DNA from: Robiginitomaculum sp.
GTDB lineage: Bacteria; Pseudomonadota; Alphaproteobacteria; Caulobacterales; Maricaulaceae
Reading direction: 5' to 3'
NCBI GenBank assembly: GCA_015485155.1
Contig: WFUF01000002.1
Coordinates: 69,735 to 133,734 of the forward strand
DNA length: 64,000 nt
The translations under genes and the position numbers were made by a program. Each line of letters opens with the position of its first letter. Position 1 is the stretch's first letter. Shown here piece by piece: positions 1 through 42,007 of the stretch. Under the pieces are notes generated by a model that did no database searches, was not told the DNA's origin, and saw only the letters and a list, made by a program, of their open reading frames with translations.

Positions 1-1149
1 GGGCAAAAGATTGCCGAAGTGGTTCGAGCTGATCTGGAGCGTTCAGGCTTATTCAGGGTTCTGGATCCTGCATCTTATATTGAACAACAGCGCAATATCG
101 ACATGCAGCCTAAATTTGCCGAATGGCGAGTGATAAAGGCCGATGCCTTGCTGGCAGGTCGGGTAGTGATTGAAGATGAAAACCGGATCCGGGTTGATAT
201 GCGGCTTTGGGATGTGTTTGCTGAAAGCCATCTTTTAGGACAGCAAATGGGAACCACACCGGAAAACTGGCGCCGGATCGCTCATAAAATAGCTGATTCC
301 ATCTATCAGAAACTAACCGGAGAATCCGGATATTTTGATACCAGGATTGTTTATATTGCTGAATCCGGGCCCAAGACCAACCGAACCAAACGGCTGGCGA
401 TTATGGACCAGGATGGAGCCAACTCCACCTTCTTGACCCCGGGCAGTTATACGGTGCTGACCCCAAGGTTTTCACCAACAGCCCAGCAGATCACTTACCT
501 GTCATATTCGACAATGGTGCCTTCTGTATTCCTGTTCAATATAGAGACAGGCCGGCAGGAAGTTCTTGGTGATTTTCCCGGAATGACTTTTGCCCCAAGG
601 TTTTCCCCCGATGGAAAAAAAGTGATCATGAGCCTGGTGCAAAATGGCAATAGTGATATCTGGGTTATGGATTTGCGCACCCGCACCCGCACCCGGCTAA
701 CCAGTTCGCCTGCCATTGATACCTCGCCATCATTTTCCCCCGATGGTTCAAAAATTGTGTTTAACTCTGATCGTGGTGGTTCTCCGCAATTATACATCAT
801 GAATGTTGATGGCAGCGATATTCACCGCATCAGCTTTAACAAGGGGCGGTATTCAGCTCCGGTATGGTCTCCGCGCGGTGACTTGATTGCCTTTACCAAG
901 CAATTGAAAGGCAAGTTTCATATCGGGGTAATGCGTCCTGATGGGCAGGGTGAACGAATTCTGACTACGGCCTATCTTGATGAAGGGCCTACCTGGTCAC
1001 CAAATGGCCGGGTTCTGATGTTTTCGCGGGAAGCCCGACCCGGATCAGGGCCTCAGATATGGAGTGTTGATCTGACCGGGGCCAATTTGCGCAAAGTTAT
1101 CACACCAGGAGATTCATCCGATCCGGCATGGTCCCCCTTGATTGAATAG
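1..1149 (+). CDS. tolB: Tol-Pal system beta-propeller protein TolB (5' end cut by window edge)
   Basis: The frame is open to base 1. Repeated propeller-blade motifs are present ([44 protein letters not shown]). It is followed by pal and cpoB in canonical order. Confidence 0.93.
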
Positions 1150-1245
1150 AACACTGGGGCTAGTTTGTCTGGTGCTGTAAACTAGAATAACAAAATATTG
1201 AAATACTTTTGCCATTATCAGTTTCGTTTCGCAAAGGAAAACAGA

Positions 1246-1791
1246 ATGAAAATCCAATTGATCAGTTTAGCCGCAGTATTTGCTATATCGGCGTGCGCCA
1301 GTGAGCCCAAAGTTGCTGAGCCTGTAGCTCCGGCCGCCCCTGAACCACAACATCAGGTCAGCTCCCATCGCGTAACCCCTGTGCAGTCACACACTACGCA
1401 GCCGATCCATACTGTTACTCCCGGATCCATTGAGGATTTTGCCACTAATGCGGGCGATCGGGTATATTTTGCATATGACAGCTATACCTTAAGCAGCGAA
1501 GCCAGAGCTGTGTTGGCCAAGCAGGCCGCATGGCTGAACAGCTATCCACGGGTAAGATTGCTGATTGCCGGTAATTGCGATGAGCGTGGTACTCGCGAAT
1601 ATAATCTGGCTCTTGGTGCCAGACGCGCCAGTGCAGTTAAGGAATATCTGGTTAATCTTGGTGTTGATCCGTCTCGACTAACCACTATATCCTATGGTAA
1701 GGAGCGCCCAATTGATCCGCGATCCACAAATGCGGCCTGGTCGATCAACCGTAATGCCCATTCTGCGATTGTATCTGGTGCTGTTAGCTGA
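1246..1791 (+). CDS. pal: Peptidoglycan-associated lipoprotein Pal (OmpA-like domain)
   Basis: ATG at 1246 is preceded by AAGGAAA. There is a lipobox (LAAVFAISAC) and an OmpA-family C-terminal domain (GNCDERGTREYNLALGARRA). The track start at 1198 adds an implausible leader. Confidence 0.9.
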   Translation: MKIQLISLAAVFAISACASEPKVAEPVAPAAPEPQHQVSSHRVTPVQSHTTQPIHTVTPGSIEDFATNAGDRVYFAYDSYTLSSEARAVLAKQAAWLNSYPRVRLLIAGNCDERGTREYNLALGARRASAVKEYLVNLGVDPSRLTTISYGKERPIDPRSTNAAWSINRNAHSAIVSGAVS

Positions 1792-1855
1792 TCGGGCAAT
1801 CAATAAATCAGGCTTCTGCCTTGTTTTTGCTATATTTGATTGAAAAGGTGCGGGT

Positions 1856-2719
1856 ATGCGAACTCTGACCCTTGTGCTTTGTGTTGTCTTTGCTTCCCTT
1901 TCGGGCGGCGCTTTTGCTGCTGAGTCCCGTAAAGAACTTGGTTTGCGTATGGATGCGTTGACCCAGCGGGTTATCGCGCTTGAGGAGCGTTTGTTAACTG
2001 GCGATCCGGCAGCTATTCAGTTGCAACAGCGTCTGGATGAGCTGGAGCGGCAATTGCGCATGCAAGTCGGCGAGAATGAACGTTTGCGCTTTGAGAATAT
2101 CCGCCAGCGTGAGGATATTAACAGTCTGCGCAAAGAACTGGATTTGTTGAATTCTGATGTGCAAACTGCCCGCGAGGATGCACAGGCTGCCAAACGCTTG
2201 CTTGGTGGTTATATTGCCGCCAGCGCAGGGGGGTCGGTAATGGCCGAGCCGATAACTGCTGGCGGTGAAGCAGCTCAGGACACGGAAGTGGCTTCAGATG
2301 CCATGCCCGTTGAGACGCAAATGGATCCTGCATCTGCCGAAGCCAGATTCAGCGAAGCACGCCGGGTTCTGGAAAACGGCTTCTTTGATGAAGCCTATAC
2401 TGCTTTGCAGGCATTTGTTTCTGATTTTCCAAAACATGCCCTATCCGGAGAGGCTTTGTACTGGATGGGTGAAATTCAAATGGTACGTGGCAATCCTGAA
2501 ATTGCTGCCGAGCAATATCTGCAATCCTTGAAAAATTTCCGCAAAGGTGAAAGAGCGCCGGATGCCATGGTCAAACTGGCAGCAGCCTTTGCCGCAATTG
2601 GCGATAATGATGAGGCGTGCCGGACACTGAAATTGTTTCCAAGAGAATACCCCAAGGCTAATTCTTCGGTAAAGACCAAAGCTGATATCGAAATGCGCCG
2701 GGCCGGGTGTACCCCGTAA
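1856..2719 (+). CDS. cpoB: Cell division coordinator CpoB/YbgF (coiled coil + TPR)
   Basis: Signal peptide, a Q/E/L-rich coiled-coil N-terminal half and a TPR-like C-terminal half (GEALYWMGE...). It occupies the conserved position after pal. Confidence 0.85.
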   Translation: MRTLTLVLCVVFASLSGGAFAAESRKELGLRMDALTQRVIALEERLLTGDPAAIQLQQRLDELERQLRMQVGENERLRFENIRQREDINSLRKELDLLNSDVQTAREDAQAAKRLLGGYIAASAGGSVMAEPITAGGEAAQDTEVASDAMPVETQMDPASAEARFSEARRVLENGFFDEAYTALQAFVSDFPKHALSGEALYWMGEIQMVRGNPEIAAEQYLQSLKNFRKGERAPDAMVKLAAAFAAIGDNDEACRTLKLFPREYPKANSSVKTKADIEMRRAGCTP

Positions 2720-2725
2720 AATCCG

Positions 2726-4030
2726 GTGCCGGACAATGACCCGGACAGTGGCCCTGATGGGTTGATTAAGAAATGCCTGACAAGCGTGGCTGTGGATGAG
2801 CCGCTGGTTGTGGGGTTTTCTGGCGGCAGTGATTCTCTGGCTTTATTGCAATACCTGCTGAAAGTCGGTGGCCATCGCCAGGTGCACGCGCTTCATGTCA
2901 ATCACAAAATCAAGCCTGATGCCGATGAACAGGCCAAGAAGGCAAAAAAGCAGGCTTTGGCATTGGGGGCCAGGGCCAAAGTGCTTCCCTGGAATGGCAG
3001 CAAACTGAAAGGTCATGCAAATGCCAGAGATGCCCGCTATCAAATGCTGGCGGCAGAATGCAAACGATTGGGAAGCTCTCATCTATGGATTGCCCACACC
3101 CGTGATGATCAGGTGGAGACCTTCTTCTTGCGTATTGCTGCTGGTTCTGGTGTTCGCGGGCTGGCAGTTATGGGGTTTGATGCACCATTTCCAATCTGGC
3201 CTGAAGGAGCAGGTTTGCGAGTATTGCGCCCCTTACTGGCTCACAGCCGTGAATATCTCAGGAATGAGTTGAAAAAACAGAATTTGTGCTGGCTGGAAGA
3301 TGAGGCAAATCAGGATCGTAATTATGCCCGGGTGCGTTTGCGTCAGCAATTGAGAAAACTGCAGGACAGCGGTTTTTCAGTTGAAAAAACCTTGAGCACA
3401 ATTTCGCATTTTCAGCAAATTGCAGCAATAGAACAAGAACAGGTAAAAGCTCTTATGCATAGTGTGGCTGAGTTTTCTCCATTTGGTTTTGTCACAGTAA
3501 AAACCGCGCGGCTGAGCGCTGTTAGTTCCCATGTTCTTGCAAGGTTTTTTGAAAAACTGATGCTTAGCGTATCCGGGGGCTTGCGCTGTAAACACACCGC
3601 AGGGCGTCTTGTTAAAATGTGGAAAGCTTTGCATGAAGGCTCCGGGCCTGTGACTTTGAATGGATGTTTGCTAAAATATAATGATGGCGTACTTTGGGTG
3701 TTTAGGGATCCAGGGTCTGTGCGCAGAAATTCGGTGCGCTCTGTAATAAATACCACGCACTTGCAGGCCGGTAGCGCTGTGATATTTGATCAAAGATGGA
3801 AAATAATACTGCCAGTGGCAGGCAAGATTATGGCTCTGGCTGATAATAAGGAACCTATGGATGAAGATCAGCGTCGATTTTTGGGCAAAGTTCCGTTTTA
3901 CGCCCGTGCCTCCATGCCGGGAGTTTTGACTTCTGCTGGGGAGTTTTTACTATTGCCAATGAAATTTCCCGAACATATTAGCTTTCAAGGTGCAGTTCGG
4001 GGGATGGAAACTGGCATTCGTTTCGCATAA
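2726..4030 (+). CDS. tilS: tRNA(Ile)-lysidine synthase TilS
   Basis: PP-loop ATPase motif VVGFSGGSDSLALL. GTG start. Conserved tilS-ftsH linkage. Confidence 0.85.
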   Translation: MPDNDPDSGPDGLIKKCLTSVAVDEPLVVGFSGGSDSLALLQYLLKVGGHRQVHALHVNHKIKPDADEQAKKAKKQALALGARAKVLPWNGSKLKGHANARDARYQMLAAECKRLGSSHLWIAHTRDDQVETFFLRIAAGSGVRGLAVMGFDAPFPIWPEGAGLRVLRPLLAHSREYLRNELKKQNLCWLEDEANQDRNYARVRLRQQLRKLQDSGFSVEKTLSTISHFQQIAAIEQEQVKALMHSVAEFSPFGFVTVKTARLSAVSSHVLARFFEKLMLSVSGGLRCKHTAGRLVKMWKALHEGSGPVTLNGCLLKYNDGVLWVFRDPGSVRRNSVRSVINTTHLQAGSAVIFDQRWKIILPVAGKIMALADNKEPMDEDQRRFLGKVPFYARASMPGVLTSAGEFLLLPMKFPEHISFQGAVRGMETGIRFA

Positions 4031-4157
4031 ACTTGAAAAGATCATGCCAAAATGATGCATTTTGCATCTTTTACCATTGTTTCAGTCGCCACAATACCCC
4101 ATTTAGGGAACGTAACCGTTCATTGGGTTTCTGATGAAGAAATAAGGACAATATTAT

Positions 4158-6086
4158 ATGGCCATGCGCAATCTTCTTTTATGGGCGATCATCATTTTAT
4201 TGGTGGTTTCGCTGTTTTCGATGGTTCAAGGTACCGGCGGTAATACGCAAGCCGGTGAAATCAGTTATTCCACACTAATGCGCGAGGCAGAGGCTGGCCG
4301 AATTAAGGCTGTGAGCCTGAACGGTATGAAGCTCTCCGGCAGATATGATGACGGCAGCAGTTTTACCGCGACCACCCCATATCCTGATACTAATCTGGCC
4401 ACCAGATTAAGTGCTGCCGGGGTGGACGTGACCGTAAAGCCCGAAGGGCGAAATGTGCTGTTCACTATTTTGATGAACTTTTTGCCGATTATGCTGCTTA
4501 TTGGCTTTTGGCTGTTTTACATGCGCCAAATGCAAGGTGGCGGTAAAGGCGGGGCTATGGGTTTTGGTAAATCAAAGGCCAGATTGCTTACGGAACATCA
4601 AACCAAGGTCACTTTTTCTGATGTAGCCGGGGTTGATGAGGCCAAAGAGGAATTAGAAGAAATTGTCGAATTCCTAAAAGACCCATCCAAGTTTCAGCGC
4701 CTTGGCGGTAAAATCCCCAAGGGCGCTTTGTTGGTAGGCCCTCCTGGAACCGGTAAAACCTTATTGGCCAAAGCAGTAGCCGGTGAGGCCGGTGTTCCGT
4801 TTTTTACCATATCAGGCTCTGACTTTGTTGAGATGTTTGTAGGTGTTGGTGCCTCACGGGTTCGTGATATGTTCGAGCAGGCAAAGAAAAATGCTCCATG
4901 TATTATCTTTATTGATGAAATTGATGCGGTGGGCCGTTCGCGCGGAGCTGGACTTGGCGGCGGAAATGACGAGCGCGAGCAAACCCTAAACCAGCTTTTG
5001 GTTGAGATGGATGGATTTGAAACCAATGAAGGCATTATTTTGCTTGCGGCTACCAACCGTCCGGATGTGCTGGACAGTGCTTTATTACGTCCGGGTCGTT
5101 TTGACCGGCAGGTAACTGTGCCAAACCCTGATATTCTTGGCCGTGAGAAAATTTTGAAAATTCATACCCGTGATATTCCAACAGCAGCTGATGTTGATGT
5201 TCGGGTGATTGCCCGTGGCACTCCGGGTTTTTCTGGCGCGGATCTGGCTAATTTATGCAATGAAGCCGCCTTGCTTGCTGCGCGCCGGGAGAAGCGTATT
5301 GTTACCATGTCCGATTTTGAAGATGCAAAGGACAAGGTAATGATGGGTTCGGAGCGCCGCTCAATGGTGATGAGTGAAAAAGAAAAGCGAAATACTGCCT
5401 ATCATGAGGCTGGCCATGCGGTGGTTGCCTTAAAGGTTCCGGCATCAGACCCGGTTCACAAGGCCACTATCATTCCTCGTGGACGGGCTTTGGGCATGGT
5501 GATGCAATTGCCTGAGGATGACAAGTATTCACAAAACTTTGAGGAAATGACTTCAAGGCTGGCCATTTTGCTAGGTGGACGTATAGCTGAGGAATTGGCC
5601 TTTGGTTCAAACAAGGTAACCTCAGGTGCATCATCTGATATTCGTATGGCAACCGGGCTGGCCAAGGCCATGGTCACCAAATGGGGATTTTCAGAAAAAT
5701 TGGGCAAGATTTCCTATGGTGAGGATGATGGTGAGGTGTTTTTAGGACAGCAGATCATGCGAAGCAGTTCTGTTTCCGGATCTACCGCCAAAATAATCGA
5801 AGAAGAAACCAAGCGTTTTGTTGACGAAGCAGAAGCCACTGCCAGAGCTATTTTGACCAAATACAAGAAGGAATGGGAAGCTGTTGCCGAAGGACTGATA
5901 GAGTTTGAAACCCTAACCGGTGAAGAAATTGAAGGACTGATGAACGGCAAGCGTCCGGAGCGCCCGGATCCGGAAGAAACGCCAAAGCCCAAAGGCCCGG
6001 GAGCTGCAGTACCTGTAACCTCAGGCCCGAAAAAGCCGAAGCCGAAATCAGGGGAGACCGACGACCCCAAACCACAGGGCGCGTGA
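4158..6086 (+). CDS. ftsH: ATP-dependent zinc metalloprotease FtsH
   Basis: Two N-terminal TM segments, Walker A GPPGTGKT, an AAA second region of homology, and the HEAGH zinc site. Confidence 0.97.
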
Positions 6087-30421: not shown

Positions 30422-31102
30422 TTACTTTCCTACCAAGACTGCATCACCAACAAATGGGTTGCTGGCCCGCTCCTCGCCAAAGGTACTAATCGGCCCGTGG
30501 CCGGGTATAAATCGCATATCATTACCCAATGGCCATAGCTTTGCTGTGATGCTGTCAAGCAATTGCTGATGATTGCCTTTGGGAAAATCGGTGCGGCCAA
30601 TAGAGCCTTTAAACAATACATCCCCGACAAAGCAAAATGCACCCTTTTGGTTGTATATCACCACATGGCCCGGCGTATGACCGGGGCAATGCACTACGCC
30701 AAATTCATTATTATCAAGACTTAAAGTATCGCCATCTTTCAGATAACGATCGGGCTTCACGTTTCGGCCTCCGGAAAGTCCGTATTTTTTTCCTTGTGCT
30801 TCTATGTCATCAAGCAGCCATTGATCGTCCTGATGCGGGCCGATCACCAAACAGCCGGTGCGCTCACGGATTTCGTCGGCGGCTCCAGCATGATCAAGGT
30901 GGCCATGGGTCAGCCACACGGCAACGATCTTGACATTATTTTGTTCTGCCGCCGCCAGTAATTTTTCGGTTTCACCACCTGGATCCACAAAAACGCCCTC
31001 GCCGGTTTGAGGCGACCACAATAATGACGTATTTTGTTGCAGTGGCGTAACTGGCAAAATCTGAATTTGCAAGGCAGGTGCTTCATTGGTGTTTTTATTC
31101 AT
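30422..31102 (-). CDS. MBL-fold metallo-hydrolase (glyoxalase II-like)
   Basis: HxHxDH motif (THGHLDHAG) and downstream His/Asp ligands (CPGHTPGH, GDVLF). Confidence 0.88.
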   Translation of the reverse strand: MNKNTNEAPALQIQILPVTPLQQNTSLLWSPQTGEGVFVDPGGETEKLLAAAEQNNVKIVAVWLTHGHLDHAGAADEIRERTGCLVIGPHQDDQWLLDDIEAQGKKYGLSGGRNVKPDRYLKDGDTLSLDNNEFGVVHCPGHTPGHVVIYNQKGAFCFVGDVLFKGSIGRTDFPKGNHQQLLDSITAKLWPLGNDMRFIPGHGPISTFGEERASNPFVGDAVLVGK

Positions 31103-31215
31103 GTGCTACCCATAACGCTTTGTCCGGTTATGTGAAAGAAAAAACTGGGCAATGTTTGACATTTGCCCCGGATAACTGGCATTTGAATGACAGGAATTGT
31201 AAAATACGGGGGCCA

Positions 31216-33960
31216 ATGATGAATATTAAAACCACTTTGTTTGCAGCTTTTTCCCTTGCCGCAATATCTGTTAGCTCTTTGGCTCAAATGCCGGATCTGG
31301 ACATAGCATATGACAGCTTCACCCTTGATAATGGCTTGCGTGTTGTAGTTCACGAAGATCGTAAAGCTCCTATTGTTTCGGTTGGGGTCTGGTATCATGT
31401 GGGTTCAAAAAACGAGCCTGAAGGCAAAACCGGCTTTGCCCATTTGTTTGAGCATTTGATGTTTAATGGCTCGGAGAATTATCCGGGCGAGTATTTTGCC
31501 CCGTTTGAAGAAGTAGGTGCCACAGATATGAATGGCACTACCTGGCTGGATCGCACCAATTATTTTGAAACTGTTCCAACTCCGGCGCTCGATATGGCGC
31601 TATGGATGGAGTCCGACCGCATGGGGCATTTATTGGGTGTGGTTGATCAGGAGGTGCTGGATGAGCAGCGTGGAGTTGTACAAAATGAAAAGCGCCAAGG
31701 CGACAACAGGCCTTATGGCATGGCACAATATCGGTTGCAGGCCGGGGTTTTTCCCAAGGGGCACCCCTATAATCACAGTACTATTGGCTCGATGGAAGAC
31801 CTGAACGCCGCCAGCCTTGATGATGTCAAAAACTGGTTCAATCAGTATTATGGCGCTGCCAATACGGTTTTGGTGCTGGCTGGTGATATTGATGTAGATA
31901 CTGCAAGACAAAAGGTCAGCAAATATTTTGGTGATATTGCTGCCGGGCCAAACCTGCACCGGTTTAAGGCATGGGTGCCAACAAAAGTCGAAAATGTATT
32001 TGAAGAAATAACCGATAATGTACCACAGGGGCGCATTTATCGCCAATGGGCGGTTCCCGGGCGTACCACCAAGGATGCAGCCATGCTGGAGCTGGCAGCA
32101 GATATTCTTGGTTCCGGGAAAAATTCCAGATTTTACAGGGAGCTGGTTTACAAACGTCAAATTGCCACACAGGTGAGCGTTTATGTGGAGCAGCACGAAT
32201 TGGCTAGTATTTTTTCCGTTGAAGTTACGGCAAAACCCGGCGGTGATTTGGCGGAAATCTCTAATGCCATTGACGAGATCATGGCAAATTTTTATGCCAA
32301 GGGCCCAACCAGAGACGAGCTAAAACGGGTTAAAGCCGTAATTAATGCGGCCATGGTGCGCGGGCTGGAGCAGATCGGTGGCTGGAGTGGTAAGGCGGTA
32401 AAACTTGCCGAAAGCATGCTTTATGCCGGAGATCCCGGGTTTTTCAAAACCAGACTTGACTGGATGAACAAAGCCGATACCCGCGCTGTACAATACGCAG
32501 TGCGTGAATGGTTGTCTTATGGCTATTACCAATTGGCAGTAATTCCTGCCGGTGAATATAAAACTATTGCTTCATCGGTGGATCGTTCCGCCGGAATTCC
32601 TGCGGTTGATGGCTTGCCTGACCTGATTTTTCCTAAAATCCAGCAGGCAAACCTGGACAATGGCATGCCGGTTATACTGGCCGAGCGCCATTCGGTGCCG
32701 GTGGTGGAAATTTCCATGCAATTTGATGCTGGATATGGCGCTGATCAAGGGGGTAAGCTGGGGACATCATCTTTTGCCATGGCAATGATGGATGATGGCG
32801 CCGGCAAAATGGATGCATTGAAGTTGAGCGAAACTCTGGAAAGACTTGGTGCTGACCTAAGTACCGATTCAGGCCTTGATACGTCTAGCATTTCGCTATC
32901 GGCGCTAAAGAAAAACTTAATCCCTTCGTTAGAGATCATGGCTGATGTATTACTGAATCCACGGTTTGCCGAGCAGGATATTGAGCGATTGCGCAAACGC
33001 TGGATTGCCGGCATTGCCAGTGAAAAGTCACAGCCTGTGCAACTGGCTTTGCGGCTATTGCCACCGGTTTTATATGGCAAGGATCATGCTTATGGCGTTC
33101 CCTTTACCGGTTCGGGCACTGTGGCTTCGATCAATAGTTTAACCCGTGATGACCTGGTGAATTTTCATCAAAAATGGTTGCGCCCGGATAATGGTGTCTT
33201 GTTTGTGGTTGGCGATACCACTATGGACGAAATCCTGCCACAGCTAAACAAGGCCTTTGGCACATGGAGAGCACCTGATACGGCCAAGCCGGTGAAAAAT
33301 ATATCTGATGTGACCAGACCAGATACTGGTAAGGTGATAATTATTGACAAAAGGGACGCGCCACAAACCCTGATTCTGGCTGGTGATCTGGTTCCTTCTT
33401 CGTCGGATGCAAATTATCTGGCGCTGGAAACCATGAATATGGTTCTTGGCGGCCAATTCACCGCACGGATCAATATGAATTTACGTGAGGATAAAAGCTG
33501 GGCTTATGGTGCCTATACCTTCACCCAGGAAGCCAAAGGCCAGCGCCCATTCATGGTATATGCGCCGGTGCAAACCGACCGCACCGGGGATAGTCTTAAA
33601 GAGTTGATTAAGGAGTTAAACGACATTAAAGGCGAGCGCCCGGCAACTGCTGGCGAAATCGAAAAAGTGGTAAAGAACGCTACTAATGCTTTGCCGGGAC
33701 AGTATGAAACCGCTGATGCAGTGCTGGGGTCGTTAATGGATAGCGAGCGTTTTGGGCGGCCCTTAAATTATCCGACCACCCTAAAAGAGCAATATCAGGC
33801 AATTAATACCGACACTGTGAACGCCCAAAGTGAACAGGTACGCCCCGATGCTCTGGTGTGGATATTGGTTGGTGATTTGACAAAAATCCGCCAGCAGGTC
33901 GAAGCGGTTGGTCTTGGCCCGATCGAAATATGGGACGCTGATGGTAAAAGGGTGGAATAG
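31216..33960 (+). CDS. Secreted two-module M16 (pitrilysin/insulinase) zinc peptidase
   Basis: Signal peptide and inverted zincin HLFEHLMFNGS. At about 915 aa it has a second, inactive M16 half. Confidence 0.88.
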   Translation: MMNIKTTLFAAFSLAAISVSSLAQMPDLDIAYDSFTLDNGLRVVVHEDRKAPIVSVGVWYHVGSKNEPEGKTGFAHLFEHLMFNGSENYPGEYFAPFEEVGATDMNGTTWLDRTNYFETVPTPALDMALWMESDRMGHLLGVVDQEVLDEQRGVVQNEKRQGDNRPYGMAQYRLQAGVFPKGHPYNHSTIGSMEDLNAASLDDVKNWFNQYYGAANTVLVLAGDIDVDTARQKVSKYFGDIAAGPNLHRFKAWVPTKVENVFEEITDNVPQGRIYRQWAVPGRTTKDAAMLELAADILGSGKNSRFYRELVYKRQIATQVSVYVEQHELASIFSVEVTAKPGGDLAEISNAIDEIMANFYAKGPTRDELKRVKAVINAAMVRGLEQIGGWSGKAVKLAESMLYAGDPGFFKTRLDWMNKADTRAVQYAVREWLSYGYYQLAVIPAGEYKTIASSVDRSAGIPAVDGLPDLIFPKIQQANLDNGMPVILAERHSVPVVEISMQFDAGYGADQGGKLGTSSFAMAMMDDGAGKMDALKLSETLERLGADLSTDSGLDTSSISLSALKKNLIPSLEIMADVLLNPRFAEQDIERLRKRWIAGIASEKSQPVQLALRLLPPVLYGKDHAYGVPFTGSGTVASINSLTRDDLVNFHQKWLRPDNGVLFVVGDTTMDEILPQLNKAFGTWRAPDTAKPVKNISDVTRPDTGKVIIIDKRDAPQTLILAGDLVPSSSDANYLALETMNMVLGGQFTARINMNLREDKSWAYGAYTFTQEAKGQRPFMVYAPVQTDRTGDSLKELIKELNDIKGERPATAGEIEKVVKNATNALPGQYETADAVLGSLMDSERFGRPLNYPTTLKEQYQAINTDTVNAQSEQVRPDALVWILVGDLTKIRQQVEAVGLGPIEIWDADGKRVE

Positions 33961-34032
33961 GGTAAAGGTTGTTTTTCTTTAGCCTGCATCTTATAAGAGT
34001 TGCGTTGTTTTTGTCGCGACGTGAGGTGTTTT

Positions 34033-35052
34033 ATGCGGTTGTCCGTCAAGCTCTTGCTGATTTTGGTATTATTGGGCTCTATTGCAAATAGCTCAATTGC
34101 TCAAACTTCATCATTCTCACCCCCAGGAGGCTTGCAAAGAGCCCTGAGCAAGCAATTAGAATCAAACATAGCTAATGGGAGATGGGATCTTGCGCAACAA
34201 ACCATCGAAATAATTGAGGAGATAGGTAAACCAGCGCCTGCAAGTTCTTTGTATGATGTGGGTAAAGGCTTGTTGGAACAAAAACAGATGGCCGGGGCAT
34301 TAAGTTTTCTTGGCTATTATCTTTCGCAGGCTAAACCCTCCGATGAAAATTACCAAATGGCGCGCTCTGGCTGGCAACAAGCCAAACAGAACCTGCCCAT
34401 TTATTGTCAGGAGAACAGTGATTTATGCGCACGATATGCCACTAAAATCTGGTTAAGAAACAAGGATAAGGAGAGTTTATCTTCATCCGCTTTATTATTT
34501 GGTTATAGCTGTGATAATGGCTCGCTATATGGCTGTTACAATTTAGCCAGCATGTATGCAGCGGGCACAGGAATAACAAGAAATGATGCCAAAGCTGTTG
34601 TTTTGCATACTAAAGCTTGCGCTGGTGATTATACCAAAGCATGTGAAAAACTTGGCGAGATTTATCAACTTGGTAAAGGTGTGGATATCGATCTTGAAAC
34701 GGCAATTGGATTTTATCAAAAAGACTGCCGTCTTAAAAAAGCTGGTGGATGTGCGCAATTAAAATCTTTGGGCGTAAAATACAGCCATGAAGCTCGGCCA
34801 ATCAGCCGTTATCCACCCTTATATCCTCCAAGAGCCTTTTCCAAAGGTTTACAGGGAAAATGCAAACTTACCTATGATGTCAGTGCAAAAGGCAGGGTTC
34901 AAAATGTAAAAGTTGATTGCACAAACCGCATTTTTAACCGGGCAGCTTTAGCATCGATCAGAAAATGGAAATATGAACCACAAATCATAGATGGCGTTGC
35001 CGTCATGTCCAAAGGACTAACCACATCTATTACCTTTAACTTGGCCGAATAA
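34033..35052 (+). CDS. Sel1-repeat protein fused to a TonB C-terminal domain
   Basis: Signal/anchor MRLSVKLLLILVLLGSIANSSIAQ. Sel1 repeats (GSLYGCYNLASMYAAGTG, ACEKLGEIYQLGKG). C-terminal TonB_C-like domain (PPLYPPRAFSKGLQGKCKLTYDVSAKGRVQNVKV...ALASIRKWKYEP). Confidence 0.7.
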   Translation: MRLSVKLLLILVLLGSIANSSIAQTSSFSPPGGLQRALSKQLESNIANGRWDLAQQTIEIIEEIGKPAPASSLYDVGKGLLEQKQMAGALSFLGYYLSQAKPSDENYQMARSGWQQAKQNLPIYCQENSDLCARYATKIWLRNKDKESLSSSALLFGYSCDNGSLYGCYNLASMYAAGTGITRNDAKAVVLHTKACAGDYTKACEKLGEIYQLGKGVDIDLETAIGFYQKDCRLKKAGGCAQLKSLGVKYSHEARPISRYPPLYPPRAFSKGLQGKCKLTYDVSAKGRVQNVKVDCTNRIFNRAALASIRKWKYEPQIIDGVAVMSKGLTTSITFNLAE

Positions 35053-35088: not shown

Positions 35089-36381
<1,293 letters not shown>

Positions 36382-36531
36382 TCAAGTGCTGATGGACGAC
36401 ACTTACAGCAGATTTTGAACACAATTGCCAAGGTTTTGCCACATCTGCCGCAAAAATACCTTGGCTTGGTCGCGCTTAAGGCACTTGCCCTTGCTTCTAA
36501 TTGCCCCACACCAACAAAAGGGGACGTTGAG

Positions 36532-38613
36532 ATGCAAATAATCACCATTCACAGATTACGCAAATTTAGCCTATTACTTGGGCTTACCTTGCTCAGTTTT
36601 TGGTTATTTTCCTGCTCGGCTCGCGCGGAAACAGCCACCATGACATTGGATGAAGCCAAATCGGGAAGCTTATTGTTTCGCACCGATCAACCGGGTCAAT
36701 ATATACCAGCTCCAGCTTTGGCAACAGATGTGCAAATCAAAGTCACTGGGCCGATTATTCGCACCCGCCTCACCCAAAAGTTTATCAATAATTCCGCGCA
36801 AACAGTTGAGGGGATTTATCTGTTTCCTCTGCCGCAAGATGCTGCGGTTGATCGTTTGGTGATGATAATAGGAGGCCGGGTGATAGAGGGCAAAATCCAA
36901 GAAAAACGTCAAGCCCGAAAAACTTACGACACTGCCAAAGAGGCCGGAAGAAAAGCATCACTTGTCGAGCAAATACGCCCAAACATGTTCACCAATTCGG
37001 TGGCCAATATCGGCCCCAAAGAAACCATTACCGTCCAAATCGAATATCAGGGTACTGCAAAGCTACGCGATGGACGGTATTCCTTGCATTTCCCTTTGAT
37101 AGTAGCACCGCGTTTTAACCCCAATGCCGAACAATCCCCCACATTTGAAAATCAAGTACCCAGAATAACCGATCCGGCGCAAATACCAAAGGGTGTTCGT
37201 TTACAGGTTCAATTAACCGCCGGCTTTGACTTGGACGACATTAATAGCCCCAGCCATAAAATCAGCATTTCTGGGGATCGCCAAAAATCCATCACTATTG
37301 ACGGCCCGGTTCCAGCGGATCGGGACTTTATCCTAAACTGGATACCCAAAGTCCAAAGCAAACCAGCCGCGCAGCTGTTTACCGAACAGAAAAATGGATC
37401 AACTTATCTGCTGGGTTTAATTCAAGCTCCAACCGGGATGGGGGAACAAACATTCAATCTGCCCCGAGAAGCAGTATTTGTGATCGATAATTCTGGCTCC
37501 ATGGCTGGCAAATCCATACGCCAAGCTCGCACCGCTTTGTTGCTGGCCTTAGATGGTTTGCGTGCAAGTGATCGTTTTAATGTCATCGCCTTTGAGAATG
37601 TTACCGATAAACTGTTCACACAAAGTGTGGTCGCAAACCGTGAGAACTTGGCCACAGCCAAGCGGTTCGTCTCGCGCTTAAATGGAGATGGCGGAACAGT
37701 GATGCTTCCGGCTCTACGTGCTGCATTTCGCACCACGGCCCCCGCGCGCGAAAACCAGGTGCGGCAAGTAATCTTCATCACAGATGGCCAGATCAGCAAT
37801 GAAGGTGAATTATTTGCAGAAATCAGACGTGAGTTAGGCCAAAGCCGTTTGTTCATGATCGGAATAGGCGCCGCCCCCAACCGTTATTTTTTGAGCCGTG
37901 CTGCCAGATTAGGTCGCGGTACCAACGTCACTATATCAGACATCAATCAAGTAGAGCAAAAAATGACCGAAATGCTGATGAAATTAGAGCGCCCGGTCAT
38001 GCAAAACCTGACTGTCTCGTTTCCCGGAGCCACCCAGCCAATTATCTGGCCCAATCCATTGCCTGATCTTTATGCCAATGACCCAGTGGTCATAGTGGCA
38101 AAAATTGATGAAGCACCACAGAACCTACTTGTATCTGGACAATTCTCCCATGCCAAATGGCAGGCTAACCTTGATTTATCCTCAGCAAATTCTGGAACTG
38201 GCATATCACAACTATGGGCGAGGGCAAAAATTGCTAGCCTCGAGGAAAGTCGGTTTGATGGCATTCATCCAAGCCATATTGATGCCCAAATTTTACAAAC
38301 TGCTTTGGCCCATCACCTGGTAAGCAGAGTGACCTCATTAGTGGCGGTTGATGTCACCCCGCAAAAAATGTTTGAGGCTGAGGCTGTCACACAAGTTTTG
38401 CCCCTTGCTTTGCCCGATGGCTGGAGCCCGTTGAAAGTAAAACCCCGAACCACTTCCATAACCCCGCCATCGCTCAATCCGGTGAATGATACCGGCATAA
38501 CCCTGCCGGCCACGGCCAGCCCCCATGAAATAAAATTGATACTTGGACTTTTAAGCTTGGCGCTGGCATTGGCACTTTTTGGACGCTGGTTACCCGCAAG
38601 GTCAAAGTCATGA
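36532..38613 (+). CDS. Marine-proteobacterial sortase target protein (VIT + VWA domains, C-terminal sorting signal)
   Basis: Signal peptide, a VIT-like N-terminal region, and a VWA domain with MIDAS motif (VIDNSGSM). The C-terminus has LPATAS, a hydrophobic helix (LILGLLSLALALALF) and a basic tail (RWLPARSKS). Confidence 0.85.
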   Translation: MQIITIHRLRKFSLLLGLTLLSFWLFSCSARAETATMTLDEAKSGSLLFRTDQPGQYIPAPALATDVQIKVTGPIIRTRLTQKFINNSAQTVEGIYLFPLPQDAAVDRLVMIIGGRVIEGKIQEKRQARKTYDTAKEAGRKASLVEQIRPNMFTNSVANIGPKETITVQIEYQGTAKLRDGRYSLHFPLIVAPRFNPNAEQSPTFENQVPRITDPAQIPKGVRLQVQLTAGFDLDDINSPSHKISISGDRQKSITIDGPVPADRDFILNWIPKVQSKPAAQLFTEQKNGSTYLLGLIQAPTGMGEQTFNLPREAVFVIDNSGSMAGKSIRQARTALLLALDGLRASDRFNVIAFENVTDKLFTQSVVANRENLATAKRFVSRLNGDGGTVMLPALRAAFRTTAPARENQVRQVIFITDGQISNEGELFAEIRRELGQSRLFMIGIGAAPNRYFLSRAARLGRGTNVTISDINQVEQKMTEMLMKLERPVMQNLTVSFPGATQPIIWPNPLPDLYANDPVVIVAKIDEAPQNLLVSGQFSHAKWQANLDLSSANSGTGISQLWARAKIASLEESRFDGIHPSHIDAQILQTALAHHLVSRVTSLVAVDVTPQKMFEAEAVTQVLPLALPDGWSPLKVKPRTTSITPPSLNPVNDTGITLPATASPHEIKLILGLLSLALALALFGRWLPARSKS

Positions 38614-39206
38614 GCGCCGAACAGGCCTTACACCGTGGTCGGCGCACTCTGGCATTGTTTATAATGCTGGCTGGAATAATTTTACTTTTACAAGGTGGGT
38701 TCACTGTTGCCAAAGCACATTTGTCTCAAACTTTATTGCAACAATCATGGGACAAAACATTGGGCAGTCAAGACAATACACGGCCATGGCCGTGGGCAGA
38801 CACTTGGCCTGTAGCTAAAATTCAAGCCCCGCGTTTAGGCAAAAGCAATATTGTATTAGCTGAAGCCGGCGGGGAGGCTTTAGCTTTCGGCCCATCACTC
38901 CTAAATGCCGGTGGGCGCCCGGGGAAAGCAGAAGATATTTTGATATCTGCTCATAAAAATACCCATTTTTCATGGCTAAAAGATCTAAAATCAGGTGATA
39001 CGCTTACCTTACAAGACCCGACAGGTGATGAAAAAAGCTATCAGGTCACCGGAATGCAGGTGGTGCGATTTGATGCCTCTGGCATTAGTGCCCAGAATAA
39101 AGGGAACCGATTGGCTCTTATCACCTGTTATCCGTTTGATGCCGGATTTGGCGGGCCGTTGCGATACATTGTATGGGCTGAAGCTGTGCCAAGCGCGACA
39201 AGCTAA
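38610..39206 (+). CDS. Gram-negative (marine proteobacterial / class GN) sortase
   Basis: N-terminal TM, His (ISAHKNTHF), the catalytic TLxTC-type motif LALITCYPF, and Arg (PLRYIVWAE). ATGA overlap with the target gene. Confidence 0.85.
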   Translation: MSAEQALHRGRRTLALFIMLAGIILLLQGGFTVAKAHLSQTLLQQSWDKTLGSQDNTRPWPWADTWPVAKIQAPRLGKSNIVLAEAGGEALAFGPSLLNAGGRPGKAEDILISAHKNTHFSWLKDLKSGDTLTLQDPTGDEKSYQVTGMQVVRFDASGISAQNKGNRLALITCYPFDAGFGGPLRYIVWAEAVPSATS

Positions 39207-39331
39207 CAATGCCGATTACAGGCACCGGATTTACGCAAAAACCGGTAATATGAACAGGAGTTAATAGATTAAGCTATGGTCTCCAGATTATTTTGATATT
39301 ACCCTGACCTGCAAATCGGTAATAACAGAAT

Positions 39332-40903
39332 ATGGAGTTTCCTATGTGGGGGGTTATTTATAAAACAGGTCTTGGTTTTATCCTGTCGTGCCTGTTGGCG
39401 TTTTCAGCATATGCACAGGCGAGCAATACCCGGCTTGAGTTTAAGGGCCTGGATGTTAACGCCGAACACATAGCTGTCTTTGTGGGTAAGGATGGTGAAT
39501 TGAGCAAAGCGGTTGCGGACATTAATGCCAAAACTGATGGCCGACTGCAAACCGCACTAAAAGATGCTGAATTTGAAGGAAAATTTGGCAAAAAATTACG
39601 TCTTTATGGTCTGTCTCCATTTAAGTCTGTTATTGTGGTTGGATCCGGTGAAGATGAATTATCGGTGCGCCAGCTTCGTGATCTTGGTGGTTATGTTGCC
39701 CAGGCAAGTTCTAATGATGATTCCCTTGCCATCATTGGCGCCGGCCTTAACACCAGTGTCGCACAAAGCGCAGCCGAGCTTGCCATGGGTTATGCGCTTG
39801 GCTCGTACAGTTTTGATAAGTACAAGGCAAAGGGCAGTGGAGACAGCAAGAAAAAAGCCCGTACCGTCAGCTTTCATACAGAAGAGCCTCAGCTTTCCAA
39901 AGACCTGTTTGTAAATGACCTTAAACACGTTGTGACCGGTGTAGGTTTTGCCCGTGACATGGGAACCGAGCCCGGCAAATCTATTTATCCTGAAAACTAT
40001 GCCCAAAGGGTGCGCAAGCTGTTCAAAGGTGTCGCCAACGTCAAGGTAGAGGTCATGGACCTTGCCCAGATGAAACGCAAAAACATGGGTGCTCTTATGG
40101 GGGTAGGCCAAGGTTCAATTCATGACCCCAGGCTGGTCACCGTTACCTATATGGGCGGAGCAAGTAATGAAGCGCCGATTGCACTGGTAGGAAAAGGCAT
40201 CACTTTTGATAGTGGTGGTATTAGCCTGAAACCAAATACTGGTCAGTGGGCGATGAAGTCTGACCTGTCCGGCGCCGCAGCAGTGGCAGGAACAATTTAT
40301 GCCGTTGCCAAACGCGGTGATAAAGTCAATCTGGTAGGTGTAATGGCCATGGCTGAGAACATGCCGTCGGGCAAGGCAATTCGTCCCGGTGATGTGCTTA
40401 CAACAATGAGCGGGAAAACCATCGAGGTCATGTCAACTGATGCCGAGGGCCGTCTGGTCTTATCTGATGCCATGACCTATGTACAAGAAGAATACGACCC
40501 ACGCTTGCTCATTGACATTGCGACTCTTACCGGGTCAGCAGCACGGGCAATGGGCGAGGATTATGCCGCCGTTATCACTCCGGACTGGGATTTGACCCAA
40601 GAGATGATGCGCATCGGCAAAGCCGTTGGTGAAGATGTCTGGCCATTGCCCTTAAACAAAAACCATTACAAGGCCATTGCCTCTGATATTGCTGATATCA
40701 AGAGCACCGCCGGCAGGCCAGGTGCCAGTATTGGCGCGGCGGTCATTGGCACATTTGTCGATGAAGATCGCAAATGGGTGCATCTGGATATTGCGGGCGT
40801 TGACTGGCTGGATAAAGCCACGCCAACCACGCCAAAGGGTCATGCCGGATGGGGTGTAAGATTTCTTGACGCTGTAGTTCGCGAAAACCAACAGGCAGAG
40901 TAA
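39332..40903 (+). CDS. pepA: M17 leucyl aminopeptidase with apparent signal peptide
   Basis: VGKGITFDSGGISLKP and STDAEGRLVLSDA (the NTDAEGRL box). The N-terminus GLGFILSCLLAFSAYAQA looks like a Sec signal. Confidence 0.9.
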   Translation: MEFPMWGVIYKTGLGFILSCLLAFSAYAQASNTRLEFKGLDVNAEHIAVFVGKDGELSKAVADINAKTDGRLQTALKDAEFEGKFGKKLRLYGLSPFKSVIVVGSGEDELSVRQLRDLGGYVAQASSNDDSLAIIGAGLNTSVAQSAAELAMGYALGSYSFDKYKAKGSGDSKKKARTVSFHTEEPQLSKDLFVNDLKHVVTGVGFARDMGTEPGKSIYPENYAQRVRKLFKGVANVKVEVMDLAQMKRKNMGALMGVGQGSIHDPRLVTVTYMGGASNEAPIALVGKGITFDSGGISLKPNTGQWAMKSDLSGAAAVAGTIYAVAKRGDKVNLVGVMAMAENMPSGKAIRPGDVLTTMSGKTIEVMSTDAEGRLVLSDAMTYVQEEYDPRLLIDIATLTGSAARAMGEDYAAVITPDWDLTQEMMRIGKAVGEDVWPLPLNKNHYKAIASDIADIKSTAGRPGASIGAAVIGTFVDEDRKWVHLDIAGVDWLDKATPTTPKGHAGWGVRFLDAVVRENQQAE

Positions 40904-41089: not shown

Positions 41090-41377
41090 CTACAAATGTT
41101 TGTTCAGATCCTGGCGGCCAAGAATTCGGATGATATCAACTGTTTGCTCGTTTACTTGATAGTAAATTATGTCACTACCACAGGGACAGCTTCTATATTC
41201 TCGATCAAGATTTTCTACGATTGAAAACAAGTACGGCTGCTCGGCTATAATATAAAATTGATCAAGAAAATTGTAATGATATTTATCCGCTTGGATTTCG
41301 CCATATTTGGTAACCTCCCAATGATAAATACGCCACAAATCATCTTCGGCTTGTGGCGTAAGCCTATATTTTCGCAT
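41090..41377 (-). CDS. parE: Type II toxin, ParE/RelE family
   Basis: 95 aa, MRKYRLTPQAEDDLWRIYHW..., the typical ParE N-terminus. It overlaps the upstream antitoxin gene by 14 nt. Confidence 0.85.
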   Translation of the reverse strand: MRKYRLTPQAEDDLWRIYHWEVTKYGEIQADKYHYNFLDQFYIIAEQPYLFSIVENLDREYRSCPCGSDIIYYQVNEQTVDIIRILGRQDLNKHL

Positions 41378-41615
41378 CCTGCTTTAATCTGGTTTTGAAT
41401 TTAACCAACAAATCCTTTGGATCAGTTTCGGAAATTCCGCTCTCAACACCTTTGCTAAGTAATGCTTGCAAGTTTGAAATAGTATTTTCACGCTGTCTAA
41501 CCTGACGTAAAACAGAATTTACAACATCGCTATGGCTCTTGAATTCTTTACTGGCGACTTGTTCTTCAATCCAGCTCTGGTTCGGCTCTGTAAATGAAAT
41601 TGTCGTGCGAGGCAT
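41364..41615 (-). CDS. parD: Type II antitoxin, ParD/CopG ribbon-helix-helix family
   Basis: 83 aa, MPRTTISFTEPNQSWIEEQV...SDVVNSVLRQ (RHH fold pattern). Located upstream of parE. Confidence 0.8.
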   Translation of the reverse strand: MPRTTISFTEPNQSWIEEQVASKEFKSHSDVVNSVLRQVRQRENTISNLQALLSKGVESGISETDPKDLLVKFKTRLKQDAKI

Positions 41616-41716: not shown

Positions 41717-42007
41717 TCAAACGCCCGCCATTGGTTGAACGGTTTTTTGTAATTCAGCAAGGCGGTCACGTTTGGCAATGCGTAGTTCATAGTCTTTTTG
41801 CAGGTTTAGCCAAAACCCGTTGCTCATGCCAAAGAACAAACTAAAGCGTAACGCCATATCCGCAGAGATAGCTCGCTTGCCGTCTATGATTTTTTTGATG
41901 GCGGCACGATCAACGCCAATGGCCTTGGCAAATGCTCCGGGTTTAATGCCCAGATCGTCCAAGAAATCTTGCTTTAGCATTATGCCGGGGTGTTCAATTT
42001 CAATCAT
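41717..42007 (-). CDS. higA: HigA-family antitoxin (XRE helix-turn-helix)
   Basis: HPGIMLKQDFLDDLGI..GAFAKAIGVDRAAIKKIIDGKRAISADMALRF is the characteristic HigA/VapI sequence. AGGAG RBS. Confidence 0.85.
   Translation of the reverse strand: MIEIEHPGIMLKQDFLDDLGIKPGAFAKAIGVDRAAIKKIIDGKRAISADMALRFSLFFGMSNGFWLNLQKDYELRIAKRDRLAELQKTVQPMAGV

Follow-up and report, generated by a model that had tools for sequence, protein, structure and literature searches.

A class GN sortase gene paired with a single VIT and VWA domain target in Robiginitomaculum, and a candidate route to peptidoglycan anchoring

A 64,000-nucleotide stretch of the Robiginitomaculum sp. assembly GCA_015485155.1 (contig WFUF01000002.1, positions 69,735 to 133,734; hereafter the window) carries two adjoining forward-strand genes, which encode a class GN sortase and, immediately upstream, its predicted substrate, a VIT and VWA domain protein hereafter called the target. 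The identity and the pairing of these two proteins are established by sequence comparison. They are not a chance resemblance, with curated equivalog scores of 693.9 bits (target) and 197.3 bits (sortase), and a gene order that recurs in at least 63 of 80 related loci. We propose that the two genes form an operon in which the sortase serves this single dedicated substrate, in the minimal form found in Alphaproteobacteria, and we regard this proposal, together with the mechanistic steps set out below, as evenly poised. None of the papers we found settles what a sortase does in a cell bounded by an outer membrane, a question as old as the first notice of these genes.

The sortase and its coupled target

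The sortase score was obtained against the curated NCBIfam equivalog model TIGR03784 ("class GN sortase"), whose cut-off is 158.25 bits. The next-best NCBIfam models were of class D, with "class D sortase, LPxTATN-specific" as the runner-up; class D membership was rejected, since the protein scored well under the cut-offs of both NF058671 (70.4 vs. 140) and NF033746 (62.5 vs. 165). The three catalytic residues are invariant across 37 diverse sortase homologues, as would be expected from the earlier note, which had read a membrane-anchored sortase with a His/Cys/Arg triad from this gene; the finding that would have refuted that reading, loss of the triad, is therefore not what the alignment shows. 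In an AlphaFold2 model (predicted local distance difference test, pLDDT, 86.7), a long N-terminal helix leads into a beta-barrel, and all 50 of the matches listed in a Foldseek search of this model against the PDB were sortases. A search with the family profile placed the class D sortase of Bacillus anthracis first among solved matches (2LN7, 78 bits, E = 3.8e-21), followed by a class C sortase at 49.5 bits. The curated hidden Markov model, the invariant triad, and the sortase-fold model thus together establish the 198-residue protein as a sortase, for which transpeptidase activity on an LPxTA signal is predicted. By the positive-inside rule, its N-terminus would lie in the cytoplasm and its catalytic domain in the periplasm.

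The sortase also includes an invariant PWPWAD motif, which has no aligned counterpart in any solved sortase and which could possibly act in a lid-like manner. The conserved stretch extends to PWPWAD(T)WP (residues 59–67, 38784–38810) and follows the N-terminal helix, ahead of the first strand. A second invariant loop across the 37 homologues, G..AFGP (G88/A92-F93-G94-P95; residues 88–95, 38871–38894), was modeled with very low AlphaFold confidence at residues 88–92.

The target matched TIGR03788 ("marine proteobacterial sortase target protein", cut-off 551.65 bits) over residues 63–683, corresponding to model positions 1–626 of 629, and has the domain composition of that family, namely a signal peptide at the N-terminus, VIT and VWA domains, and a tripartite signal of LPXTG type at the C-terminus. 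In a 22-sequence alignment of the target and its homologues, the residues of the metal ion-dependent adhesion site (MIDAS) are invariant (D319-x-S321-x-S323, T389, and D418), which agrees with the earlier description of a secreted 693-residue VIT and VWA protein with an intact MIDAS motif. The AlphaFold model of the target reached a pLDDT of 76.9. Its open reading frame (ORF) starts with an ATG located 8 nt 3' of a GGGGA run; a longer reading from a TTG at 36415 adds no recognizable feature, and the public gene call begins at Met37 (36640), yielding 657 residues without a signal peptide. We favor the 693-residue start over this public call because A30 and A32, the AxA signal-peptidase site, are nearly invariant in the same alignment.

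The C-terminus of the target reads LPATAS (residues 658–663)-PHE-IKLILGLLSLALALALFG-RWLPARSKS, i.e. a sorting motif, a hydrophobic helix, and a basic tail, which is the complete sorting signal that had been proposed from the sequence. By analogy with the class D sortase SrtC, cleavage of LPATA is predicted between T661 and A662. The Pro-rich segment that precedes the motif, disordered in the model, probably acts as a spacer. The two genes overlap by 4 nt in an ATGA junction at 38610–38613, where the target stop codon TGA (38611–38613) runs into the sortase ATG (38610–38612), consistent with the translational coupling noted earlier.

Table 1. Coordinates and supporting evidence for features of the target and sortase genes within the window.
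Feature	Positions	Strand	Basis
Sortase target gene, 693-residue VIT and VWA protein, TIGR03788 member	36532–38613	+	ORF, NCBIfam score, predicted fold
Predicted Sec signal peptide, residues 1–32, MQIITIHRLRKFSLLLGLTLLSFWLFSCSARA/E (slash, putative cleavage)	36532–36627	+	Sequence; A30/A32 nearly invariant
VIT domain, residues 65–172	36724–37047	+	Pfam PF08487, E = 2.4e-36
VWA domain, residues 314–475, complete MIDAS motif	37471–37956	+	Pfam VWA_3 (E = 1.2e-21), VWA_2, VWA
Predicted disordered Pro-rich linker, residues 611–657, from globular body to sorting motif	38362–38502	+	AlphaFold pLDDT <50 at residues 611–653
Sortase recognition motif LPATA, residues 658–662	38503–38517	+	Sequence; L658/P659 invariant in 22-sequence alignment
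C-terminal membrane helix (residues 667–684) and basic tail RWLPARSKS (residues 685–693)	38530–38610	+	Sequence; AlphaFold helix at residues 664–686
Class GN sortase gene, 198 residues	38610–39206	+	TIGR03784; Pfam Sortase E = 2.4e-20; AlphaFold2 model
Sortase N-terminal membrane anchor, residues 13–33, preceded by basic RGRR	38646–38708	+	Sequence; model helix at residues 3–53
PWPWAD motif, residues 59–64, class GN-specific	38784–38801	+	Invariant in 37 homologues
Catalytic His115 codon (SAHKNTHF)	38952–38954	+	Invariant; aligns with His of 2LN7
Catalytic Cys173 codon (LITCYPF)	39126–39128	+	Invariant; aligns with TTCYPFD motif of 2LN7
Catalytic Arg185 codon (PLRYIV)	39162–39164	+	Invariant; aligns with Arg of 2LN7

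A widespread pair and its genomic context

Related loci were drawn from a scan of species-representative genomes, and the counts given here refer to the best 80 of 518 relatives, with neighboring genes clustered. Where the sortase was not recovered directly downstream of the target, the reason was mostly that the contig ended there or, in GC-rich loci, that a spurious ORF on the antisense strand hid the sortase gene. Across the related loci, the pairwise identity of the targets tracks that of the sortases (Pearson r = 0.73, 1949 locus pairs), which fits the inheritance of both genes as one unit. The closest relatives of the pair (62–66% identity) are found in Robiginitomaculum metagenome-assembled genomes, where NCBI has annotated them under the existing names "class GN sortase" and "marine proteobacterial sortase target protein". 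With 8000 candidates scored in each case, 3910 target-like proteins were detected at E ≤ 1e-10 and 7648 sortase-like proteins at E ≤ 1e-5, while a representative library clustered at 50% identity included 235 clusters of related sortases at E ≤ 1e-30, rising to 1312 when the threshold was relaxed to E ≤ 1e-10. This gene pair is thus genuine, but of an already named, curated, and very common kind, and is not new. The earlier note had assigned it to the marine proteobacterial sortase and target family, and the family assignment stands, with both curated cut-offs passed; the "marine" label is too narrow, because the best 80 loci, mostly from Alphaproteobacteria, include the soil genera Rhizobium, Bradyrhizobium, Ensifer, and Methylobacterium.

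LPxTA is the commonest sorting motif in the target family, with the family form LPxTA[ST]. As had been stated for LPxTG-type substrates, a six-frame ORF scan of the whole window yielded no plausible second sorting signal: the three other matches were loose S-P-x hits on short ORFs, without an LPxT motif.

The described system to which this pair is related is the proteobacterial dedicated sortase (Pds) system of Shewanella, which comprises five genes encoding a kinase (PdsS/PghK), a regulator (PdsR/PghR), the OmpA-like protein PdsO, the target, and the sortase (SO2192–SO2196 in S. oneidensis; NCBIfam TIGR03785 for PdsS, TIGR03787 for PdsR, TIGR03789 for PdsO, and TIGR03788 and TIGR03784 for target and sortase). 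In S. oneidensis, the PdsS/PdsR two-component system is activated by peptidoglycan-targeting antibiotics and by the loss of PBP1a, signaling needs its periplasmic carbohydrate-binding module, and SO2194–2196 (pdsO, target, and sortase) are induced >17-fold. Transcripts in an S. algae isolate with a pdsS G547W mutation were increased 126-fold for the sortase, 388-fold for the target, and 799-fold for pdsO. Target and sortase are co-transcribed in Shewanella with PdsO, which binds peptidoglycan. The earlier statement that the pair has no demonstrated function accordingly needs qualification: it agrees with the literature for biochemistry, in which we found no assay, and not for regulation, which has been described in Shewanella.

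The window includes the minimal alphaproteobacterial two-gene core and not a complete Pds locus, so that the earlier reading of the pair as the sortase system applies to the core and not to the five genes described in Shewanella. Searches of the whole window by tblastn, using as queries confirmed PdsS and PdsR examples from two related loci (L063 and L078), yielded no PdsS or PdsR (best E = 0.75), and no histidine kinase or response regulator was identified in the 64 kb. PdsO is absent upstream of the target, where the neighbor is a divergent aminotransferase-like gene. The sole OmpA-like match in the window, a weak tblastn match to PdsO at 1375–1761, lies ~35 kb from the pair inside an ORF (1198–1791) whose place within the tolB cluster leads us to interpret it as Pal. 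Models TIGR03785, TIGR03787, and TIGR03789 were confirmed in one gammaproteobacterial-type locus (L063). A two-component system adjoins the pair in only 7 of the 80 loci, and PdsO is absent from 76; most alphaproteobacterial loci consist of the two-gene core alone, often beside an aspartate aminotransferase gene.

An aspartate aminotransferase-like gene is also found here (35089–36351, minus strand), upstream of and divergent from the pair. Across the related loci, 26 to 31 of the 80 include an aminotransferase-like gene within 3–5 kb upstream, in most cases transcribed in the opposite direction; loci of Maricaulis, Parvibaculum, Rhizobium, and Hoeflea show the same succession of aminotransferase, target, and sortase. 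This adjacency points to an old conserved synteny and not to a functional partnership. The nearest model to the window gene is aspartate transaminase PRK06107 (534 bits, below the 617-bit cut-off), and a functional link to the pair through aspartate as a diaminopimelate precursor is unsupported, with only 222 bits against the LL-diaminopimelate aminotransferase cut-off of 593. A recently acquired horizontal island was rejected on the basis of the GC content of the pair (0.47–0.49), which matches that of the window, and of the recurrence of the arrangement across genera. A promoter and terminator scan of 36250–39450 returned counts not above shuffled sequence (6 vs. 4.1 ± 1.8 and 7 vs. 3.9 ± 2.0) and no site in the intergenic region 36352–36531, and is uninformative on regulation.

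The wider context is consistent with a class GN assignment, in that the sortase adjoins a single VIT and VWA target in a proteobacterial window of alphaproteobacterial type. A tolB (partial)-pal-cpoB/ybgF-tilS-ftsH cluster at 1–6086 (plus strand) and suc genes follow the alphaproteobacterial layout. Several other neighbors were observed around the pair. Upstream, an exported-looking double M16 peptidase (~913–960 residues) is encoded at 31078–33960 (plus strand), and an M16 homologue also adjoins the pair in loci L009, L010, L022, and L028. The protein encoded at 34000–35052 (plus strand) matches Sel1 repeats weakly and carries a TonB C-terminal domain; its gene is not kept beside the pair in other loci. 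Downstream, at 39332–40903 (plus strand), lies a leucyl aminopeptidase of family M17 that likewise looks exported; its hydrophobic leader at the N-terminus is unusual in a family that is normally cytoplasmic. About 2 kb downstream of the sortase, overlapping genes for a ParE toxin and ParD antitoxin are followed by a small HTH_3 protein (41090–41615 and 41717–42007, both minus strand).

Proposed anchoring and alternative readings

In the mechanism we propose, the precursor would be exported by Sec and its signal peptide removed after A32, while the C-terminal helix and basic tail would retain it in the inner membrane, with the integrin-like VIT and VWA body held in the periplasm on a flexible linker of ~45 residues. 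Cys173 of the sortase, oriented with its N-terminus inside, would then attack the T661-A662 bond of LPAT/A to form a thioacyl intermediate. This intermediate would be resolved by the side-chain amine of meso-diaminopimelate (m-diaminopimelate) on lipid II or nascent peptidoglycan, leaving the C-terminus of the target covalently fixed to the sacculus, and the MIDAS site would bind an envelope or matrix partner via a metal ion.

That peptidoglycan is the acceptor, and that the target is anchored in the periplasm, we hold by analogy to be somewhat short of an even chance. An m-diaminopimelate acceptor is suggested because the nearest characterized enzyme (2LN7) uses it and because the sorting motif matches LPxTA. 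Proteobacterial peptidoglycan is itself of the m-diaminopimelate type. A peptidoglycan link is further favored by the Shewanella operon, which a peptidoglycan-damage sensor activates and which includes the gene for the peptidoglycan-binding PdsO, and anchoring in general by the ~45-residue disordered linker before the motif. Since the alphaproteobacterial pair, the commonest and minimal form, persists without the kinase PdsS, the regulator PdsR, and PdsO, the likely acceptor can be narrowed to a generic envelope component.

Several observations weigh against this view. Our literature search returned no published cleavage, acyl intermediate, acceptor, muropeptide-linked product, or phenotype for any family member, the work found on the pair being two Shewanella regulation studies along with comparative-genomics or classifier papers. 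Deletion of SO2194–2196 in S. oneidensis left ampicillin resistance unchanged. Transferring the class D acceptor to a sortase that scores below class D cut-offs is an extrapolation. Homologous VIT and VWA cargos are paired with rhombosortase or exosortase signals instead, and we know of no evidence that either enzyme attaches its substrates to peptidoglycan. Finally, among the 120 target homologues closest in sequence, ~45 have a shifted motif, LPxG[AGS]T (e.g. LPQGAT or LPQGGT), as do 9 of the 80 loci; helix and basic tail are retained, and the shift may mark an altered sortase specificity or cleavage register; because ~40% of the closest homologues carry this form, specificity is not uniform in the family.

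Three other fates of the thioacyl intermediate can be considered. The sortase might be purely a site-specific protease that uses water as its nucleophile, and free the target as a soluble periplasmic or shed protein. Sortases do hydrolyze substrates in vitro when no nucleophile is added, the one-enzyme, one-substrate arrangement is that of dedicated maturation proteases, and no acceptor has been identified to date. However, the full transpeptidase active site, including the Arg, is strictly conserved, a signal peptidase or another protease would be cheaper, and the long linker is typical of anchored proteins; we therefore judge this reading unlikely.

Lipid anchoring followed by surface display appears improbable. 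Here, a membrane amine such as phosphatidylethanolamine would resolve the thioacyl, and the lipid-tagged target would reach the outer membrane or the cell surface with its MIDAS serving as an adhesin. In a study of VesB from Vibrio cholerae, rhombosortase substrates reportedly acquire a modification that contains ethanolamine and are delivered to the cell surface, and VWA domains with MIDAS are typical of adhesins, with pilus tip adhesins found among the weaker fold matches of the target model. To our knowledge, however, no sortase uses a lipid amine, genes for secretion systems or lipoprotein sorting are not conserved beside the pair in related loci, and the closest characterized enzyme uses m-diaminopimelate. 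Also in favor of a lipid route is the occurrence of the same VIT and VWA cargo with GlyGly-CTERM, PEP-CTERM, or LPXTG tails (Haft 2011, PMC3237569).

In the third reading, the sortase would ligate the target to another envelope protein by bonding Thr661 to a Lys or to the amine of its N-terminus. The partner would be PdsO in Gammaproteobacteria, and in Alphaproteobacteria either Pal or an outer-membrane protein; alternatively, the target would be polymerized like a pilin. Class C pilin polymerases do rank among the top Foldseek matches of the sortase, PdsO is co-transcribed with the pair in gammaproteobacterial-type loci, and Gram-positive pilus tip adhesins contain VWA domains. We nevertheless doubt this reading strongly, as PdsO is found neither in the window nor in 76 of the 80 loci and the profile search places the sortase much nearer to class D than to class C. 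Pilin-like self-polymerization was rejected, because the 22-sequence target alignment includes no invariant or near-invariant Lys and hence no pilin-motif Lys.

Returning to peptidoglycan anchoring, we tentatively suggest a fuller version, which may well be wrong, in which the bare alphaproteobacterial core is self-sufficient and links its MIDAS protein via Thr661 to m-diaminopimelate of the sacculus, while PdsS, PdsR, and PdsO would be a later gammaproteobacterial addition that couples this anchor to the sensing of peptidoglycan damage. The known covalent links of the envelope are Braun's lipoprotein and the outer-membrane proteins joined by LD-transpeptidases. An integrin-like protein anchored to periplasmic peptidoglycan, if confirmed, would represent a new class of such links and would tie the pair to the peptidoglycan-damage response of Shewanella, and a bond between Thr661 and m-diaminopimelate would be the first protein-peptidoglycan bond built by a sortase in a diderm periplasm. 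The present locus adds little to the acceptor question, which is better approached by experiment in cultured carriers such as Shewanella oneidensis, Maricaulis maris, or Rhizobium species than from an uncultured genome.

Comparison with known systems

Compared to the Shewanella Pds system, sortase and target are orthologous by curated models, follow each other in the same order (target, then sortase), and share an LPxTA-type signal; the difference lies in PdsS, PdsR, and PdsO, which are not in this 64-kb window.

Among characterized enzymes, the closest is the B. anthracis class D sortase, which cleaves LPNTA between Thr and Ala, uses m-diaminopimelate cross-bridges as the nucleophile, and is encoded beside a two-component system; it attaches its substrate BasH to a peptidoglycan layer that lies between two membranes (PMC3297441). 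The compartment that holds BasH is topologically a periplasm. The two systems (SrtC/SrtD with BasH and BasI on the B. anthracis side) share aligned His, Cys, and Arg residues, an LPxTA motif here vs. LPNTA, few dedicated substrates, an m-diaminopimelate-type wall, and peptidoglycan lying between two membranes. They differ in the additional invariant PWPWAD of the sortase described here, in a target unrelated to BasH or BasI, and in a diderm host, and the window sortase, under the class D cut-offs, is not a member of that class.

Beyond sortases, the VIT and VWA proteins processed by rhombosortase (GlyGly-CTERM) or exosortase (PEP-CTERM) are homologous cargos, with the same tripartite organization of motif, helix, and basic tail (PMC3237569), whereas their processing enzymes are unrelated and the motif is another one.

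By sequence, the target aligns with the VIT-VWA region of PARP4 over residues 52–608 (E = 1.8e-27) as well as with the inter-alpha-inhibitor heavy chains ITIH4 (E = 2.3e-27) and ITIH1, and its model matches ITIH1 (6FPY) over ~620 columns (E = 4.5e-35, TM 0.70). Sequence and predicted fold alike mark the target as a bacterial homologue of the inter-alpha-inhibitor heavy chain: like ITIH1 and PARP4, it displays VIT-VWA homology over nearly the whole globular part, an ITIH1-like predicted fold, and an intact MIDAS. In animals, ITIH heavy chains are trimmed at the C-terminus and then covalently linked through the new C-terminus to chondroitin sulphate or hyaluronan. Enzymes and chemistry are wholly unlike, with an ester to sugar in animals and a predicted amide formed via sortase here, and the parallel in C-terminal attachment is suggestive, not mechanistic evidence. 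If peptidoglycan anchoring were confirmed, the target would parallel, in bacteria, the ITIH heavy chains that animals bind covalently to glycans by their C-termini.

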